A stretch of DNA of 64,000 bases, from positions 13,342-77,341 of the forward strand of contig JBDSHN010000075.1 of NCBI GenBank assembly GCA_039918435.1, given 5' to 3'. This document shows, piece by piece, positions 4,090-58,655 of the stretch. The translations under genes and the position numbers were made by a program. Each line of letters opens with the position of its first letter. The stretch's first letter is position 1. The notes beneath the pieces are model-generated. The model did not search any database. It had not been told where the DNA came from and worked only from the letters and a program-made list of their open reading frames with translations. Origin of the DNA: Bacteroidia bacterium. Its GTDB lineage: Bacteria; Bacteroidota; Bacteroidia; Palsa-965.

Positions 4090-5850
4090 TTAATCAGCTT
4101 TGTGCGCCATGTCAGCACGTTGTTTCGGTTTTTCCTTCACAACAATAGTGGTAAGAATACTTTTCCAGCCTTTCGGATCCAATAAAATTTCTGTTGCTTT
4201 TTTCAGATCAGGATCGTCTTTCAGGGATGCCGCAACTCTTCCTGATTCAAAATAATAACGGGAAGCAATTTCAGCTTCGAGCAATACTTTGATCTCCGTT
4301 TTGAATTGCTGGAAATCATCTGTTTTGCCTGACTGCACTTTTCGCAACAGCGCATCATATTCGGTAGAAGCCATTGCGAATGAATTATTTTTCTCCGCAT
4401 GCGTTTTATATTCCACAAGATCTTTTTCTTCACGCGAAGTATACTTGTAATCCTGCGTTTTTGCCCACGCAACAAATTCATCATACTCCGTATCTGTCAG
4501 CCTGAATTTATCCGACTTGTCGATGGACGCATGTTTACGGGCATACATTGTGGCGTAATGAAACAAAATATTTTTCGCGATCAATGAATCGGTGAGCACA
4601 CTGAAACGGCGTTCAGGAACTTCAAGGTCAGGAATTACTCCGAGTCCGTCCCATACCGTGCGGCCGTTTTTGGTTTTGAATGCGGTGATGAGTGAATCAT
4701 TAAAACGCGCAAGGCTTCCGTCAGGATTGCGGTGCGAATAATCGATCGACTGCACGCATCTTCCGCTTGGCGTATAATATTTTGCAACCGTTACTTTAAA
4801 AATAGAGCCGTAAGTCAACGGAAGCGTTTGCTGCACAAGCCCTTTTCCGAAAGAACGCTGACCAACAATAACAGCGCGATCTAAATCCTGAAGTGCACCA
4901 GCAACAATTTCAGAGGCAGATGCCGACCATGCATTGACCATTACCACAAGAGGAATTTGCAGGTCAACTGGAGTTGCTTCGGTTTTATATTCCTTATCCC
5001 ATTCTTTTACGCGGCCTTTCATGACCACGACAAGTTTTCCTTTTTCAACAAAAAGATTGACGATAGCTACGGCCTCGCGCAAAAGTCCGCCCGGGTTTTC
5101 ACGTTCATCCAGCACGATAGAAGTTGCGCCCTGCTGTTTAAGATTGAGCAATGCTTCACGCACTTCATTGGAAGCGCCATCCATAAAACCGGAAAGTTTA
5201 ATGAAGCCTACTTTGTTTTCAAGCAGCGCGTAGTAAGGAACGTTTTTCACTTTCACTTCATCGCGCACGATATTAAATTCCAATGGCTTCGGTTCATCAG
5301 CACGGCCCACTTTTATTTTCACAGAAGTATTCGGAATTCCTTTCATCAGCTTTCCTAATTCTTCGTAGGTTTTTCCTTTCGTAGCAATGCCATTGATCTC
5401 GAGAATAATGTCGCCTGCTTTTAATCCTGCTTTCTGTGCAGCAAAACCTTCGTAAGGCTGAGAAATATAAAAGTCATCGCCAATCTGTCTTACCTGCGCA
5501 CCGATTCCACCGTATTCACCAGAAGTCTGGTAGCGGTAATCTTCAATTTCCTCTGCAGAAATGTAATTCGTGTACGGATCAAGTGAGCCGAGCATGGCAT
5601 CAATTCCCGTTTTCATCAGCTGACCCGGCTTTGGCTCATCCACATAAAGTTTGTTGAGCTGCTGAAAAAGCGTTCCAAAGATTTCCATGTTCTTAGAGAT
5701 CTCGAACAAATGATCGTCGTCTTTATCTGCGAATGCAAATCCTACATAACCGCCAATGATTAATGCAAGCGGGATAGCAATACGACGCATCTTCTTTCTG
5801 AAAAAAGTAAGCGGAGATGTTTTTTCTGAAGCTGGGTTTTTCATTTGCAA
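4090..5850 (-). CDS. ctp: S41 family carboxyl-terminal processing peptidase (Ctp/tail-specific protease)
   Basis: PDZ region (AGLKAGDIILEINGIATKG) followed by the S41 catalytic region (VVMVNAWSASASEIVAGALQD, Ser/Lys dyad context). N-terminal signal/TM. Confidence 0.8.
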   Translation of the reverse strand: MQMKNPASEKTSPLTFFRKKMRRIAIPLALIIGGYVGFAFADKDDDHLFEISKNMEIFGTLFQQLNKLYVDEPKPGQLMKTGIDAMLGSLDPYTNYISAEEIEDYRYQTSGEYGGIGAQVRQIGDDFYISQPYEGFAAQKAGLKAGDIILEINGIATKGKTYEELGKLMKGIPNTSVKIKVGRADEPKPLEFNIVRDEVKVKNVPYYALLENKVGFIKLSGFMDGASNEVREALLNLKQQGATSIVLDERENPGGLLREAVAIVNLFVEKGKLVVVMKGRVKEWDKEYKTEATPVDLQIPLVVMVNAWSASASEIVAGALQDLDRAVIVGQRSFGKGLVQQTLPLTYGSIFKVTVAKYYTPSGRCVQSIDYSHRNPDGSLARFNDSLITAFKTKNGRTVWDGLGVIPDLEVPERRFSVLTDSLIAKNILFHYATMYARKHASIDKSDKFRLTDTEYDEFVAWAKTQDYKYTSREEKDLVEYKTHAEKNNSFAMASTEYDALLRKVQSGKTDDFQQFKTEIKVLLEAEIASRYYFESGRVAASLKDDPDLKKATEILLDPKGWKSILTTIVVKEKPKQRADMAHKAD

Positions 5851-12530: not shown

Positions 12531-12540
12531 TCCGGCTATT

Positions 12541-13218
12541 TTATTTATCCTTCAATAAAAATTCACCCTTCGTAAGCCATGAAAATCCGAACGCCCAAAG
12601 TGCGAGTGTTTCTAAACAGAAAACATATTTGTAAGCATTGAATTGCGGCTTATAGGATGGCATTGCAAAGTAAGGAATTAATAAAAGAATACAGGCGATC
12701 ATTACCCAGCCACAAATCTTATACACTTTATTCCTCCTTATTTTTTGTGCTGTGATAATGCCGGAAGTTTTTGTGAAAAGAAACAGTGAGAAATAAGCGA
12801 GCACGAGAAAAAATAATGCGGCGGAGCTTAAATGAATAATGCCAACATATTTTTCGTGCGCTGCCGGTATCATTCCGCCGGGTAAGCAGATGTCATCTTT
12901 TAGTGTTGTCGGGCAAATAGCAGCGATAGTGCCAAATGTTCCTGCGATGTTTCCCATTATCCCATCAATTTTTTGCGGGCCTTTGTAGGTAAAGAGAAAA
13001 ACAGAAAATGCGCAGAGGACACCAACAAAAACATTCCCCATATTAGTATGATAATAATTGCTGATGGAAGTCTCAACATGATCGCAGCCAAAAATTACCA
13101 CGGAACCAACAGCAAGAATAACCGGCAATAAAATTCCGAGCCATCCGACTGTTTTGCGTAAGGTTTTGTAGTGGATAAGGTAAAAAGGATTTTGCTGCCT
13201 GAGTAGTTTTTTGTCCAT
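12541..13218 (-). CDS. Hypothetical polytopic membrane protein (about 6 TM)
   Basis: 225 aa with alternating hydrophobic segments. It is tightly linked to 11814..12530. Confidence 0.45.
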   Translation of the reverse strand: MDKKLLRQQNPFYLIHYKTLRKTVGWLGILLPVILAVGSVVIFGCDHVETSISNYYHTNMGNVFVGVLCAFSVFLFTYKGPQKIDGIMGNIAGTFGTIAAICPTTLKDDICLPGGMIPAAHEKYVGIIHLSSAALFFLVLAYFSLFLFTKTSGIITAQKIRRNKVYKICGWVMIACILLLIPYFAMPSYKPQFNAYKYVFCLETLALWAFGFSWLTKGEFLLKDK

Positions 13219-18222: not shown

Positions 18223-18373
18223 TGTAATCTTGCCCGGTTTCCTGCCGGTTTTATGTTTGAACTTAGCGCAAAGGAACTGACAGATTAGAGGTCGCATTTT
18301 GTGATCTCCAATTGCGATAAAAATGAGATTACATTACGCGCCATTTTGTGTTAAAGAACAAGGAATTACAACT

Positions 18374-18798
18374 CCCGTTTGTTCGAGCGAAGTCGGGAAC
18401 ACACGGGCTAAGGATTTTATTGATTATTCAAACGAATTTATGAGAAGAAGATTTCATGTTTATATTTTGCTTTGTGCTGATGGCACTTATTATACCGGTA
18501 TGACAAACAATATCTGTCGTCGATTCGCGGAACATGAAGCCGCTTATAATCCGAAATCATATACCGCATCGCGGCTACCAGTTAAATTAATGTGGACGGA
18601 ACGGTATGACTCACCACGTTTTGCTTACAAAATGGAATGGAAAATAAAGAAGTGGTCTGCAGCCAAGAAAAAAGCCTTAATTGAAGAACGATTTGACGAT
18701 CTGAAAAACCTGGCGCGCTGCCTGAATAAAACATCGCATGAAAACTGGAAGAAAATAATTGAATCCCGTGTGTTCTCGACTTCGCTCGAACAAACGGG
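18374..18798 (+). mobile_element. Putative IR-bounded GIY-YIG cassette
   Basis: 34-bp imperfect terminal inverted repeats flank the GIY-YIG ORF: cccgtttgttcgagcgaagtcgggaacacacggg at 18374-18407 and its reverse complement at 18765-18798. No transposase or integrase is present. Confidence 0.4.
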
Positions 18799-18808
18799 AG
18801 GGCCTTAA
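18440..18808 (+). CDS. GIY-YIG nuclease family protein (YhbQ/UPF0213-like)
   Basis: FHVYILLCADGTYYTGMTNNICRRFAEHEAAYNPKSYTASRLPVKLMWTERYDSPRFAYKMEWKIKKWS is a GIY-YIG core of about 90 aa with a basic tail. The last 13 codons are encoded by the right inverted repeat. The listed ORF has a spurious 39-codon N-terminal extension. Confidence 0.7.
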   Translation: MRRRFHVYILLCADGTYYTGMTNNICRRFAEHEAAYNPKSYTASRLPVKLMWTERYDSPRFAYKMEWKIKKWSAAKKKALIEERFDDLKNLARCLNKTSHENWKKIIESRVFSTSLEQTGGP

Positions 18809-18949
18809 AACATTTATTTTGTTTCGCTCGAACAAGCAGGACCTCCTTAAAACATTTATTTCTTTCGCTCGAGCAAACGGGACCTCCTTAAAACATTTAT
18901 TTTCTTTCGCTCGAGCAAACGGCACCTCCTTAGAAAATTTAGTATTTTT
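18781..18949. repeat. Tandem direct repeat, 4 units of about 41-44 bp
   Basis: The units are TTCGCTCGA(A/G)CAA(A/G)C(A/G)GG(A/C)CCTCCTTAAAACATTTATTT(T)CT x4, directly abutting with no spacers. The first unit is the 3' half of IR-R. Confidence 0.8.
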
Positions 18950-19083
18950 TTCGAGCGAAAAACTCAGGCAGTCCTAAAAGTTATTCCATGTTTATTTTTA
19001 AATGTTTTAGTTTGAAATTTACATTGCTACAAACGCAGAATGACTAAACAAGAATTTCCTCCCCGTTCACAACAAAAATCTTT

Positions 19084-19117
19084 CCCGTTTGTTCGAGCGA
19101 AGTCGAGAACACACGGG
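19084..19117. repeat. Third copy of the 34-bp repeat, A orientation
   Basis: cccgtttgttcgagcgaagtcgagaacacacggg matches 18374-18407 at 33 of 34 positions. It sits about 30 nt before the recJ start. Confidence 0.75.
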
Positions 19118-19148
19118 AACAAATAGTAAATTTGTAATTCAACACCAT

Positions 19149-31174: not shown

Positions 31175-31184
31175 CTTAAATCAA

Positions 31185-31256
31185 TTTGCTAATATGCTGA
31201 TGAGTTAATGTGCTAATCCCGTCAGCACTTTATTATTGGCAAATTAGCACATGCTG
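31185..31256. repeat. TGCTAAT-heptad repeat element, copy 1
   Basis: tttgctaatatgctgatgagttaatgtgctaatcc ... ggcaaattagcacatgctg contains a 10-bp inverted pair atgtgctaat/attagcacat. It shares TTTGCTAATATGCT(A/G)ATGA with copy 3 and abuts the rlmN stop. Confidence 0.6.
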
Positions 31257-33649: not shown

Positions 33650-34360
33650 TCACAGAAGTGTTCCACCATTCAAATCTCCCGCCACCGTCCGCCTGGATTT
33701 CAAAATTGCTTCAGCAATAATTAAATCCGTCGGTGTTGTCAATTTGAAATTATCCACGTTGCCATCCACGAGATGAATGGATTCCCCAAATGATTCTACA
33801 ACAGAAGCATCGTCGGTAAATGTGTATTTGTATTCCTGCGAATATGCTTTCTTCAGCAGCGGAACAGAAAAACATTGCGGCGTTTGTATCAGGCAATATT
33901 TTGAACGGTCAACAGCAACGCTGGGCTTTGAATCGTTCTGGCGGATGGAATCACTCAGCGGAATTGAAGGAACACCGCTTCCGTTAAGCTCAGCCATATT
34001 GAACGAATTGAGAATTGTTTTTTTTGTGACCAGCGGACGAACAGCATCATGCACTGCAACAAGCGCCTCTTCATCCGGAATTAAAGAAAGACCATTCTTC
34101 ACCGATTCAAAACGCGTTTCGCCTCCCGCCGTGATCTGAACCGGAACCGGAAGTTTATATTCCTGCGCGATCTTTTCCCAATGTGAAAACTCGCTGGCAG
34201 GTAAAACAAGAATAACGATGATGTCTTTATCGTAATCAGCAAACGCGGCAATGCTATGCAATAAAACAGGGCGTCCGTCCAGCTTTAAAAACTGTTTTGG
34301 TGTGGGAGATTGCATCCGCGAACCTCTTCCTGCTGCAACGATGATGACGTAATGTTTCAA
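33650..34360 (-). CDS. ispD: 2-C-methyl-D-erythritol 4-phosphate cytidylyltransferase
   Basis: The N-terminus YVIIVAAGRGSRMQSPTPKQFLKLDGRPVL is canonical IspD. 236 aa. Confidence 0.8.
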   Translation of the reverse strand: MKHYVIIVAAGRGSRMQSPTPKQFLKLDGRPVLLHSIAAFADYDKDIIVILVLPASEFSHWEKIAQEYKLPVPVQITAGGETRFESVKNGLSLIPDEEALVAVHDAVRPLVTKKTILNSFNMAELNGSGVPSIPLSDSIRQNDSKPSVAVDRSKYCLIQTPQCFSVPLLKKAYSQEYKYTFTDDASVVESFGESIHLVDGNVDNFKLTTPTDLIIAEAILKSRRTVAGDLNGGTLL

Positions 34361-34374
34361 GATTCCAAATATAG

Positions 34375-34583
34375 GGGGAAGTAGTTAGTCCGCGGCGGAG
34401 AAGTTATTAGTTCGGGGAATTTTTTGAAAAAGAGAACCAATTACAAGTGAAAACGAATTTATGAAAGCTCTTGGATTACATATTATTCGTACCATTCAGA
34501 ATTTGTTCTCCATCCAACAAAAAAAATCGGAGAAAACAGACGCATCCATTTTCTCCGAACTAAAAACTAATCCACCGCGGCGG
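34375..34583. mobile_element. MITE-like element bounded by inverted repeats of about 35 bp
   Basis: The left repeat is gtagttagtccgcggcggagaagttattagttcgg (34375-34409). The right is ccgaactaaaaactaatccaccgcggcggactacgaact (34545-34583). They are reverse-complement related through AGTCCGCGGCGG..TTAGTT..AGTTCG, and the ~135-bp interior has no ORF. Confidence 0.4.
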
Positions 34584-34591
34584 ACTACGAA

Positions 34592-35641
34592 CTATATGAT
34601 AAGCATGGCATCGCCGTAGCTCAGGAAACGGTATTTTTCTTTTACCGCTTCTTTGTATGCTTTCATGATCAGGTCATAACCACCGAATGCCGAAACCATC
34701 ATCAGCAAAGTAGATTCTGGCGCATGGAAATTAGAGATCATGCAGTTTGCGATTGAAAAATCATAAGGAGGAAAAACAAATTTGTTTGTCCAGCCGCTGA
34801 ATGGTTTCAGGTATCCATCGGTAGAAACCGAAGTTTCAGTTGCACGGATAGTAGTTGTTCCTACTGCACAAACGCGTTTTTTATTGCGTTTCGCTTCATT
34901 CACCAGCAATGTTGCACTAACGGGAATCTCAAGCTTTTCAGATTCCATTTTGTGCTTGGTGAGATCTTCCACTTCAACCGGACGGAAACTTCCCAATCCA
35001 ACGTGCAAGGTCAGCTTTGGGAATGTAATGCCTTTTAATTCCAGGCGTTTCAACAGCTCACGTGAGAAGTGCAATCCTGCAGTCGGAGCAGCAACAGCAC
35101 CTTCCACATCAGCGTAAACAGTCTGGTAACGGTCTTTATCTTCCGGGCTCAGCGGACGTTTGATGTATTTCGGAATAGGTGTATTTCCGAGAAGTTCAAT
35201 TGTTTTTTTGAATTCTTCGAACGGGCCGTCGAAAAGGAAACGCAATGTACGGCCACGACTTGTGGTGTTATCAATTACTTCAGCAACGAGGTTATCATTT
35301 TCGCCGAAGTAAAGCTTATTGCCGATACGGATTTTACGCGCAGGATCTACAAGCACATCCCAGAGGCGGCTTTCACGGTTCAGTTCACGAAGAAGAAAAA
35401 CTTCAATTTTAGCGCCTGTTTTTTCTTTGTTTCCGTAAAGGCGTGCAGGAAATACTTTCGTGTCATTCAAAATCATGCAATCGCCGTCATCGAAGTAGTT
35501 GATGATGTCTTTGAAGATCTTGTGCTCGATCTTGCCGGTTTTACGGTCAATGACCATCATCCGCGACTCATCACGGTTCTTTGAAGGGTAATCTGCCACC
35601 AGCTCTGGCGGAAGATGAAATTTGAATTGAGATAATTTCAT
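34592..35641 (-). CDS. queA: tRNA preQ1(34) S-adenosylmethionine ribosyltransferase-isomerase
   Basis: [19 protein letters not shown]...DESRMMV... is the canonical QueA N-terminus. 349 aa. Confidence 0.85.
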
Positions 35642-43456: not shown

Positions 43457-43788
43457 CTGAATAAATTAAGGGATGCAAAAATAGTTTTCATAATGACAGG
43501 AAAGAAAAGTATTAGACGACAGGAAATTCAGGTCAGACCGATGACGTATGGACAGCGATGAGTGAATAAATAATATGCAGCAGGAGGAAAAATTATTGAG
43601 CAATTCCCCATATTGGGAAAAATTTTTATTTTATTTTGCCTGGTATAGCTGCGGCAAATTATTTTAAAAAGATGGAAGAAATAGTACAGCGTTGAGACAA
43701 AAAATAGCCGCCATTTAAGAGGGCAGCTATGAAAATATTAAAGTGGGACGTACTGGGTTCGTCCGCCGCGGCGGACAGTGAACTCTAC

Positions 43789-44034
43789 TTAATATCCTGT
43801 TTGAGATTTAATAAAATCTCTTCCCTTGCCGCTTTTAAGAAATTTCTCACGTGCTATTGCTTCGGATCGTGTTTCAAATTCTTCTTTGTAAATCAAGCTC
43901 CATGGACCTTTATTCTTGGTATAAACACCAAGCAATCCAAGATTGTGCTGAATTAGCCGGGTTTCAATATCCTCAGTATGCCCAGTGTACTTTTTACAAA
44001 CTTTTTCAGAAAAGATGACATAAATATAAAACAT
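43789..44034 (-). CDS. GIY-YIG nuclease family protein (YhbQ/UPF0213-like)
   Basis: The 81-aa protein MFYIYVIFSEKVCKKYTGHTEDIETRLIQHN...FETRSEAIAREKFLKSGKGRDFIK is a paralogue of 48020..48307. Confidence 0.7.
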   Translation of the reverse strand: MFYIYVIFSEKVCKKYTGHTEDIETRLIQHNLGLLGVYTKNKGPWSLIYKEEFETRSEAIAREKFLKSGKGRDFIKSQTGY

Positions 44035-47903: not shown

Positions 47904-47981
47904 GGGAGCTTAGCTCAGCTGGTTCAGAGCACCTGCCTTACAAGCAGGGGGTCATAGGTTCGAACCCTATAGCTCCCACCA
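47904..47981 (+). tRNA. tRNA-Val (anticodon TAC), CCA encoded
   Basis: GGGAGCTTAGCTCAGCTGGTTCAGAGCACCTGCCTTACAAGCAGGGGGTCATAGGTTCGAACCCTATAGCTCCCACCA. The anticodon loop is CTTACAA and the fold is a canonical cloverleaf. Confidence 0.85.
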
Positions 47982-47988
47982 CATTCTA

Positions 47989-48019
47989 CCCACTTTCTAT
48001 TATGAAAGTGGGTTTTTTT
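47989..48019 (+). terminator. Hairpin plus T7 between the tRNA and the GIY-YIG ORF
   Basis: cccactttc, loop tattat, gaaagtggg (9-bp stem), then TTTTTTT directly abutting the ATG at 48020. Confidence 0.65.
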
Positions 48020-48307
48020 ATGCCTAAAATCTACATCCTCTTTTCCAAAAAATTGAATAAATACTACGTTGGGTATACTTCTGATGATTTGGAAGAGCGT
48101 TTGAGAAAGCATAATTCTAATCACTCGGGTTTTACAGGCGGATTTGGTGATTGGGAGATTAAGCATTTCGAGTCTTTCGAAACAAAAGAAGAAGCATTAA
48201 TCAGAGAAAAACAAATAAAAGGGTGGAAGAGCAGAAAATTGATAGAAAAACTAATCAAAAAATATGATTCAGAGCATCCCGACATGAAGTCGGGAGGAAC
48301 CCTATAG
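48020..48307 (+). CDS. GIY-YIG nuclease family protein (YhbQ/UPF0213-like)
   Basis: MPKIYILFSKKLNKYYVGYTSDDLEERLRKHN...FETKEEALIREKQIKGWKSRK has a GIY-YIG core. The listed ORF 47882..48307 runs spuriously through the tRNA. Confidence 0.7.
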   Translation: MPKIYILFSKKLNKYYVGYTSDDLEERLRKHNSNHSGFTGGFGDWEIKHFESFETKEEALIREKQIKGWKSRKLIEKLIKKYDSEHPDMKSGGTL

Positions 48308-48371
48308 CTCCCACAACTAAAAGCCTGTTAATACGCTGTATTGACAGGCTTTTCTGCTTTTAAATAAGCGG

Positions 48372-57740: not shown

Positions 57741-57777
57741 AATGTGCTAATCTGCTAATGGGTTAATGTGCTAATGA
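57741..57777. repeat. TGCTAAT-heptad repeat element, copy 2
   Basis: aatgtgctaatctgctaatgggttaatgtgctaatga lies 7 nt after the ACAD stop. A weak hairpin plus T-run follows at 57776-57808. Confidence 0.65.
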
Positions 57778-57942
57778 AAAAGCCGGTCTTAGTTGATCGG
57801 CTTTTTTGTGGGGTTTAGGAAAAGAAGTTGAAAATGATCAGGAGCTATTCCGGCTATCCGCTGCAAGTCCTCCCATAAAGTACGCGCTGCGCTTGACTTT
57901 ATGGTCCGGGCTTTACGCTGCTATCCGGGCTAAAAAAAATCA

Positions 57943-58620
57943 TTACAAACTAAAATACCGGATGAGTGCAAAAGTCAGCGCAAACAAACCAAGCGCCAGC
58001 GTAATAAGATAAACGGGCAACAACAACGCTGATCCTGCAACGAGCAACACAATAGTAAAAATAAGTCCGACAGTATCAGCAATTCCTGCTAAAACAAACA
58101 AAGTTGATTTCTTTTTATTTTTCGCGATCATGTAAACGAATCCGAGAAAATAAAACCAATAGGGAGGAAGCACAAGACAAACGAGCGTAAATAAAAAGAT
58201 AGTCACTGCATCGGATAACCATCCCGGCACACTGGCATTGCTTGGTAACAGTTTGTGTGTTGTTTTAACTTTAAATAAACTGCTTTTCGGATTTTTAATT
58301 TTCTGCTGCGTTTTCTTTTCTGCTGCATTTATTTTTGGAACCGGAGCAGTTGTAATTACTGTTTCATTTGTCTTTACATCGGCAATTATAACTGAAACAG
58401 AATCGGGTTGTTTGAGTTTAACCATTGGCGAAATTGAAGCCATCGCGCCTTCCTGTTTTTCAGAAGCGGAAACTGATTTGAGGCTTTCAACATAAAAACC
58501 TTTCCGGTAATGGCGTTTCTGAAGGTCGATTGCACCTATAGAAGAACAAGCGGCAAAAAAGAAACACAAAAGAAACACAAAAGCGGCCTGTTTGAAATCG
58601 GGGCGTTTTTTCATTAGCAT
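57943..58620 (-). CDS. Hypothetical membrane protein (lipoprotein-like N-terminus, C-terminal TM bundle)
   Basis: ...FLLCFFFAACSS..., then an extracytoplasmic segment and 4 C-terminal TM helices. The first codons (ATGCTAATG) are encoded by repeat copy 3. Confidence 0.45.
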   Translation of the reverse strand: MLMKKRPDFKQAAFVFLLCFFFAACSSIGAIDLQKRHYRKGFYVESLKSVSASEKQEGAMASISPMVKLKQPDSVSVIIADVKTNETVITTAPVPKINAAEKKTQQKIKNPKSSLFKVKTTHKLLPSNASVPGWLSDAVTIFLFTLVCLVLPPYWFYFLGFVYMIAKNKKKSTLFVLAGIADTVGLIFTIVLLVAGSALLLPVYLITLALGLFALTFALIRYFSL

Positions 58621-58655
58621 ATTAGCAAATTAACCCATTAGCAGATTAGCACATT
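58611..58655. repeat. TGCTAAT-heptad repeat element, copy 3, inverted relative to copy 2
   Basis: tcattagcatattagcaaattaacccattagcagattagcacatt is the reverse complement of aatgtgctaatctgctaatgggttaatttgctaatatgctaatga. Confidence 0.65.

Follow-up and report, generated by a model that had tools for sequence, protein, structure and literature searches.

The inverted repeat in the spacer between queA and ispD is probably part of a composite spacer and not of a transposon. We propose that this spacer, in the 64-kb stretch of DNA analyzed here (the window), is made up of copies of a short repeat, the terminator of queA, and a GC palindrome that belongs to a family linked to GIY-YIG nuclease genes and tRNA genes; we hold this explanation as a whole with moderate confidence. 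By itself, the inverted repeat between queA and ispD amounts to an ordinary, lineage-specific spacer of short repeats that bears a terminator. Its value is that of a pointer: the GC palindrome marks a precise and recurrent rearrangement of tRNA genes beside minimal GIY-YIG genes in several Bacteroidota.

An inverted repeat that shares an 11-mer with a tRNA-Val(GAC)/GIY-YIG cassette

Both genes are encoded on the minus strand (queA, 34592-35641; ispD, 33650-34360, with a TTG start) and are separated by 231 nt (34361-34591). The best local alignment pairs 34381-34419 with the reverse complement of 34551-34588 over 39 columns, with 31 matches, one gap and 131 nt between the arms. Its score of 36 exceeds everything obtained from 500 shuffles of the spacer (14.6 ± 2.3, maximum 27). 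The repeat reported in the initial annotation is therefore real, but its arms, which had been placed at 34375-34409 and 34545-34583, were off by 6-10 nt. RNA read from the minus strand of the spacer has a predicted fold of -74.3 kcal/mol (z = -6.0). The whole element is present in three contigs of the same species (L001-L003, 97-100% identity), and a 3-nt change in L002 and L003 improves the complementarity of the arms, which then match at 31 of 34 positions. The GC cores of the two arms run in the same direction on one strand (TCCGCCGCGGA occurs twice in L002) while their flanks are inverted, an arrangement that a simple inverted duplication does not predict.

The spacer repeat and the tail of the tRNA-Val(GAC)/GIY-YIG cassette have an exact 11-mer, CCGCGGCGGAC, in common. 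With up to one mismatch this 11-mer is found five times where 0.48 matches are expected, and none of 100 shuffles reached that number, so the motif is in excess over chance within the window. The 9-mer CCGCSGCGG likewise occurs at only three sites in the 64 kb, the two arms and the cassette tail (about 0.27 expected). Two details given previously were reproduced, namely the identity at 16 of 19 positions between ccgcggcggactacgaact (34575-34593) and ccgcggcggacagtgaact (43766-43784), and the perfect 16-bp palindrome GTCCGCCGCGGCGGAC at the cassette tail (43761-43776). The motif that is truly shared comes down to the 11-mer core and the palindrome family to which it belongs. The additional GAACT, which had been counted as part of it, has two unrelated origins: judging from its contexts, the agreement is a coincidence, because GAACT is derived from the tRNA in the cassette (AGTTCACTG vs AGGTCACTG, variable loop and T stem) and belongs to a TAGTTCG unit overlapping the queA stop codon in the right arm.

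Parts of the spacer

Read on the minus strand, the queA stop codon is followed by the right arm, a terminator, an inner segment of about 100 nt, the left arm, a -7-like box and the ispD start. The right arm (34551-34594, minus strand) is a double unit, TAGTTCGTAG-TCCGCCGCGGTGGA-TTAGTTTTTAGTTCGGAGAA (nhmmer E = 7e-14), which begins at the TAG stop codon of queA and continues as TTCGTAG-TCCGCCGCGGTGGA-TTAGTTTTTAGTTCGGAGAA. Its GC core (TCCACCGCGGCGGA on the plus strand, 34571-34584) matches the 14-mer of the palindrome family at 13 of 14 positions and reads TCCGCCGCGGA in L002 and L003. Together with the U-rich GTTTTTAGTT, the hairpin of this palindrome forms a second, weaker predicted terminator-like site (34587-34568).

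The main predicted terminator of queA occupies 34517-34558 (minus strand). Its stem TCGGAGAAAATGGA/TCTGTTTTCTCCGA (34558-34527) has 14 pairs, a 4-nt loop and a T8 tail, and is thereby predicted to be an intrinsic terminator. The inner segment that follows (34420-34516, minus strand) is specific to this species (L001-L003); it is missing from the spacer of the sister species, contains no gene of note and matches no Rfam family. The spacer in its full length did not match any Rfam family either, at gathering or at permissive thresholds. The spacer also contains small ORFs of up to 52 aa that overlap queA; we consider them spurious.

On the ispD side, the left arm (34381-34419, plus strand) is one double unit of about 42 nt, GTAGTTAG-TCCGCGGCGGA-GAAGTTATTAGTTCGGGGAA (nhmmer E = 3e-11). 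Its core, TCCGCGGCGGA (34389-34399), has 11 nt and equals the 14-mer palindrome of the family minus one CCG triplet. On the strand of the genes, the arm reads TTCCCCGAACTAATAACTTC-TCCGCCGCGGA-CTAACTAC and consists of G-poor CCCCGAACTAAT... units immediately 5' of ispD. Outside the arm, 6 nt upstream of the TTG start, lies a candidate -7 box, TATATTTG (34366-34373, minus strand), which fits TAnnTTTG, the Bacteroidota -7 promoter box, and may serve as a promoter. From these predictions, the interior of the element appears to be transcription punctuation of the host.

The arm repeat and its palindrome in a sister species

The double unit of about 42 nt has the form AGTTnTTAG - palindrome TCCGCCGCGGCGGA - GGAGTTTTTAGTTCGGAG and can be read as two tandem units of 14-16 nt ('AGTTnTTAGTTCGGAG' type), the first of which is interrupted by the GC palindrome. 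Sequence collections were scanned with the pattern GTCCGCSGCGGN{6,12}TTAGTTCGG, which requires 20 exact bases. Among 185,579 species genomes there were four true matches, on four contigs of a single MAG (JANOCU01); five further matches, in GC-rich genomes, were dismissed as chance. The metagenome collection gave nine matches, all attributed to chance except one doubtful case (L018), and the viral collection gave none.

JANOCU01 represents a sister species (QueA 97% identical; DNA 74-83% identical over 21 kb of synteny). Its four copies, which lie at intergenic sites, align with the window arms over about 45 nt (nhmmer E = 1e-11 to 1e-15). When all nine copies of arms or units are placed in one such alignment, the two copies from the JANOCU01 queA-ispD spacer lack exactly the 11-nt core. 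The palindrome thus corresponds to a net +11-nt indel within a plain unit, AGT[T/A]C directly followed by GGAG vs AGTCC-GCCGCGGCGGA-GGAG, which is present in the window species and missing at the orthologous position of JANOCU01. Within JANOCU01, the ispD-side and etfB copies agree even in their outer flanks (GGGAAG...AGAAAAA); what sets them apart is the palindrome. Its queA-ispD spacer contains two forward units, the same terminator and four reverse units, with neither palindromes nor the inner 100 nt. As the orthologous units differ by a clean 11-nt gap, the alignment suggests that the inverted unit arrays are older than the palindrome and that the latter is an indel in a pre-existing spacer repeat. 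In position and flanks the window cores are identical to the sister copies with a perfect 14-mer, but the cores themselves are degenerate (11 nt; 13/14).

With two in the window and four in JANOCU01, no more than six palindrome-bearing double units are known in all, which points to a small or an under-sampled family. Plain units (..TTAGTTCGGAG) free of the palindrome occur in arrays elsewhere (L005:5490-5565, L023:11860-11895 and L004:4044-4110). The etfB-etfA spacers of relatives with 85-91% EtfB identity are unrelated and contain different short repeats.

The palindrome replaces loop positions of tRNA segments beside GIY-YIG genes

In the tRNA-Val(GAC) cassette of the window, the GIY-YIG ORF for a protein of 81 aa (43789-44034, minus strand) is directly followed by a copy of the 3' part of the tRNA (43743-43788, minus strand), in which the perfect 14-bp palindrome TCCGCCGCGGCGGA (43762-43775) takes the place of G53-T54-T55. 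The minus strand thus reads gtagAGTTCACTG-TCCGCCGCGGCGGA-CGAACCCAGTACGTCCCAC where tRNA-Val(GAC) reads gtagAGGTCACTG-GTT-CGAACCCAGTACGTCCCAC. A diverged copy of the tRNA terminator comes after this tail. The arm cores TCCGCGGCGGA and TCCGCCGCGGTGGA are degenerate members of the same palindrome family (TCCGCC-NN-GGCGGA type).

Loci with homologues of the GIY-YIG protein were chosen by protein similarity alone (68-81% identity). Every locus fetched carries a duplicated 3' segment of a tRNA behind the GIY-YIG gene, with G53-T54-T55 replaced by a palindrome. The T-loop is substituted in this way in segments of tRNA-Val(GAC) (L027, and L029 with the variant TTCGCCGCGGCGAA), tRNA-Val(TAC) (L028) and tRNA-Phe (L036, and L039-L041 with the variants TCCGCCTAGGCGGA and TGCGCCGCGGCGCA). 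All four sequence variants are perfect palindromes, with two different compensatory changes at pair 2/13 and a center that varies from CGCG to CTAG. Read from these sequences, the variation argues for selection on, or generation of, symmetry at the DNA level and not merely of an RNA stem.

The T-loop is not the only site of replacement. In 5' tRNA fragments of L027 and L029, a D-loop triplet (GCT or GAT) is exchanged for the same 14-mer. L029 carries four tandem 5' fragments of tRNA-Val of about 50 nt each (acceptor strand and D stem; 4710-4900) just upstream of the intact tRNA, and in L027 a 5' fragment (130-190) and a 3' fragment bracket the intact tRNA and the GIY-YIG gene. The whole module of terminator, GIY-YIG gene and T-loop-substituted tRNA-Phe fragment is tandemly duplicated in L039 (3634-4400), L040 and L041, with two or three palindrome variants per locus, a picture suggestive of segmental amplification. 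In L036 the tRNA-Phe that precedes the cassette is apparently truncated, and ARAGORN detected no tRNA there.

Strict palindromes were counted 12 times in 39.6 kb of GIY-YIG loci, all of them in cassettes, and not once in the control loci for queA and etfB, which total 109.8 kb. Together with the arm repeats of the sister species, the palindrome at all fetched homologue tails supports the earlier proposal that the spacer is tied to GIY-YIG cassettes by a shared motif. What the two have in common appears, from these alignments, to be a palindrome family and no common transposon. No GIY-YIG genes were found within 8 kb of the solo copies of the palindrome, so the link of these copies to the nuclease is circumstantial.

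Three solo 14-mers lack the AGTTCGGAG flanks (L004:2332-2345, L008:2991-3004 and L028:4552-4565). Two of them stand after a stop codon and are followed by T-runs, in a terminator-like arrangement; one is enclosed in a separate inverted-repeat element (TTGTCATTCTG ... CTGAATGACAA), 187 nt 5' of tRNA-Val. In a scan of viral sequences, the signature of the cassette tail matched solely in contigs of 59-72% GC, and the D-loop signature gave no match. One of the viral contigs (IMG/VR, 72% GC; L030:3250-3350) contains several near-identical tandem palindromes of the GTCCGCCGCGGCGGAC type, and GC-rich viral contigs (L031-L034) contain GTCATCCTGAG-14mer-CGAAGGATC; these may be related to the Bacteroidota family or may reflect composition.

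The palindrome is not constant among GIY-YIG cassettes. A second cassette of the window (47904-48360) consists of tRNA-Val(TAC) (47904-47981), a terminator and a GIY-YIG ORF (48021-48307) whose product is 43% identical to that of the first. The 3' end of this ORF enters a tRNA-like copy (48268-48314), after which a diverged copy of the terminator follows. Between ORF start and the end of this copy (48021-48314) the hairpin is a different one: in the tRNA-like copy, TCCCGAC-ATGAA-GTCGGGA (48277-48295) stands in place of the region that extends from anticodon arm to T-loop. A third small GIY-YIG gene (plus strand, from the ATG at 18440 to 18808; Pfam PF01541, E = 6e-14) lies between perfect 36-nt inverted repeats (18372-18407 and 18764-18800), and this repeat recurs once more at 19083-19118. 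After the gene, half of the hairpin is reused in a 42-nt tandem repeat of 3.9 copies (18781-18941). A caution for annotators is that neither the short ORF tails nor the 'pseudo-tRNA' fragments of these genomes are random decay; both are structured.

Alternative explanations for the inverted repeat

The initial annotation called the element MITE-like, and a related reading is that the arms are the ends of a MITE- or REPIN-like non-autonomous element, the pair of which would be moved as a unit by an enzyme acting in trans, GIY-YIG or other. We consider this unlikely, even though the element is small, free of any credible ORF, situated at gene ends and bounded by significant terminal inverted repeats, the arms are dispersed in the sister genome, and their palindrome is the one found in GIY-YIG cassettes. 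Searches for the whole element with blastn gave no second copy in the 64 kb of the window, in the related loci (about 398 kb) or in the collections of plasmids and phages, and the arm pattern, scanned against the genome, metagenome and viral collections, gave no locus with two arms. Conservation of the two repeats as a unit in other copies had been named beforehand as decisive, and no other paired copy exists in the material searched; palindrome-bearing copies in JANOCU01 are solo and unpaired at three of the four loci. The flanks (...TATAGGGGGAA before one arm and TATATGATAAG after the other) hold no direct repeat that could be a target-site duplication. Direct repeats beside the core were rejected in that role, as the plain units stand in tandem even at sites without the palindrome. 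The interior contains a host terminator that is kept in the sister species. No precise empty site was found among the relatives, because the orthologous sister spacer already has both unit arrays in addition to the terminator, without the palindrome or the inner 100 nt, and the spacers of farther relatives are unrelated. The suggestion that the element could be a gene-less derivative of the cassette did not hold up either: no tRNA or tRNA-like sequence is present in 34300-34660, where the flanks are AGTTCGGAG-type units, and a tblastn search of the window (E <= 10) for GIY-YIG remnants recovered only 43792-44034 and 48020-48247, none of it within the element.

Alternatively, the long hairpin might itself be the function, in mRNA 3'-end protection, insulation from read-through or regulation of ispD, with the repeats kept for their complementarity. 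The inverted architecture and a strong predicted fold do recur in two species with 74-83% identical DNA (z = -6.0 in the window, -6.5 in JANOCU01), the right-arm unit and the terminator are 86% conserved over 51 nt, and the 3-nt change in L002 and L003 betters the pairing of the arms. We nonetheless find this rather improbable. The architecture is missing in relatives with 91-93% QueA identity, whose queA-ispD spacers are unrelated, there is no Rfam match, and with the terminator ahead of the left arm, a normal queA transcript would not include both arms. Moreover, the etfB-etfA spacer composed of the same units folds no better than its shuffles (z = -0.6), and copies occur in both orientations relative to genes. 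It is very improbable that chance alone, by way of low-complexity, self-complementary spacer DNA and a fortuitous 11-mer match to the cassette, accounts for the observations. Only the 11-mer core is truly common to both, GAACT being of two origins, which would suit chance; the shuffle tests reject it, and an identical 14-mer is seen again in independent assemblies, invariably in one and the same position of the tRNA, as well as in the arm repeat of another species.

A possible origin of the palindrome

If the spacer is composite as we propose, queA transcripts would end at about 34560-34567, behind the palindrome hairpin with its U-run, and at 34517-34526, behind the main terminator, both predicted sites, and ispD would be transcribed from its own promoter, with a predicted start near 34360. 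The long hairpin between the arms would form only in read-through RNA, in which it could act as a further block or an insulator. The arm palindromes (11 nt; 13/14) would be decaying copies of the 14-mer, and they may have been placed by the same DNA-level process as those in the tRNA loops, plausibly with the involvement of a GIY-YIG nuclease. Slx1 is a structure-specific nuclease, and stand-alone GIY-YIG domains are Slx1-like; a nick directed by a hairpin or cruciform and followed by repair is thus a reasonable guess for how the palindrome could be written. That the nuclease simply recognizes CCGCGG, like Eco29kI or Cfr42I, is weakened by the CTAG-centered variant TCCGCCTAGGCGGA.

We tentatively suggest, as a possibility that we would not yet call probable, that a clade of Bacteroidota has an undescribed system, a GIY-YIG counterpart of REP-RAYT, with the perfect 14-bp palindrome as its cis element. 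GIY-YIG nucleases of about 80 aa would write the palindrome into positions in single-stranded loops (G53-T54-T55 of the T-loop, the D-loop and GTTCGG-like spacer units), with local duplication of tRNA segments, and the queA-ispD arms would be non-autonomous progeny. The two other GIY-YIG genes of the window each have a hairpin of their own (18372-19118 and 48277-48295), which fits one hairpin per nuclease lineage. Should nuclease and palindrome prove to be linked in mechanism, REP-RAYT would be joined by a second example of a nuclease that has a dedicated palindrome in the genome, and tRNA loci would be edited or duplicated by the system as well.

Comparison with known systems

Bacterial MITEs such as the Correia elements of Neisseria are 100-250 bp long, have terminal inverted repeats, reside in intergenic regions and can supply terminators or promoters. 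The queA-ispD element resembles them in size, terminal inverted repeats, intergenic site and terminator, but differs in that no target-site duplication or multiple full copies were found, the interior is host-specific and the orthologous site is not empty. The mobile GC clusters of yeast mitochondria are short GC-rich palindromic insertions in AT-rich spacers, polymorphic for presence and absence, which also occur in structured RNA genes. In contrast to these, the palindrome described here is located on a bacterial chromosome, is unrelated in sequence, has a fixed length of 14 bp, replaces a trinucleotide and is linked to GIY-YIG and tRNA genes.

REP, BIME and REPIN sequences and their RAYT transposases (IS200/IS605-type Y1) are known from Enterobacteria and Pseudomonas; REPs are dispersed short extragenic palindromes, mostly vertically inherited and overlapping with terminator-like functions, whose proposed driver is a single-copy nuclease gene with the cognate palindrome on its flanks (PMC3337134, bioRxiv 10.1101/2022.05.22.493013). 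As with REPs and REPINs, the palindromes here are short and extragenic, often in inverted pairs just after stop codons. Unlike them, they are present in a handful of copies (four of the exact pattern in JANOCU01) rather than hundreds, and the perfect 14-mer stands within tandem units of 14-16 nt and also in fragments of tRNA genes. The nuclease genes seen beside related palindromes are, in contrast to RAYTs, minimal GIY-YIG genes only.

SegB of phages T4 and T6 is a free-standing GIY-YIG homing endonuclease encoded in a tRNA gene cluster and can drive segmental duplication (PMC13096335). The cassettes are similar in that GIY-YIG genes adjoin tRNA genes, and the tandem tRNA fragments of L029 and L039-L041 resemble segmental duplication; however, the proteins are bare catalytic domains of 81-95 aa, and palindrome substitution in tRNA loops is undescribed for SegB. 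Cfr42I and Eco29kI are GIY-YIG restriction endonucleases with the site CCGC/GG (PMC2241918, PMC1952068). Their symmetric site has a parallel in CCGCGG, which is central in the commonest palindrome variant and present in both arms, whereas the variant TCCGCCTAGGCGGA lacks it, no methyltransferase partner is present and the proteins are much smaller, so that on comparison we see a resemblance only. Stand-alone GIY-YIG domains of prokaryotes have been discussed solely as a minimal Slx1-like, possibly ancestral form of the fold (PMC1564403). Our literature search found no directly relevant description of an association of bacterial GIY-YIG genes, tRNA genes and palindromes.

Other repeats in the window and in relatives

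G-poor tandem units of 7-14 nt (on the sense strand) are located directly 5' of start codons in the window (34375-34420) and at L004:4036-4110, L042:10860-10891, L044:3370-3416 and L045:10825-10865. At one and the same spacer, the units vary from species to species (CCGAACT.., TCGTAAA.., TCACCAA..), and their complements often stand after the preceding stop codon, which results in inverted arrays. The G-poor units may be related to Shine-Dalgarno-independent initiation in Bacteroidota.

Relatives also carry a further dispersed element, about 90-110 nt long and with the ends GTCAGCCTTCGATACAT ... ACACTCAGTCTGACAA, which occupies different intergenic sites from one relative to the next (L042:10745-10830, L045:10745-10825 and 12540-12625, L044:3280-3360 and L004:2245-2310) and is not clearly present in the window. 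It is a better MITE candidate than the queA-ispD repeat.

Finally, the window contains a match to Flavo-1 RNA (57843-57935, minus strand; 44.8 bits vs a gathering score of 42) in the region 57741-58655. Inverted arrays of 8-nt units enclose it, AATGTGCT (57741-57776) on one side and CATTAGCA (58612-58655) on the other, and a related array is found at 31183-31217.
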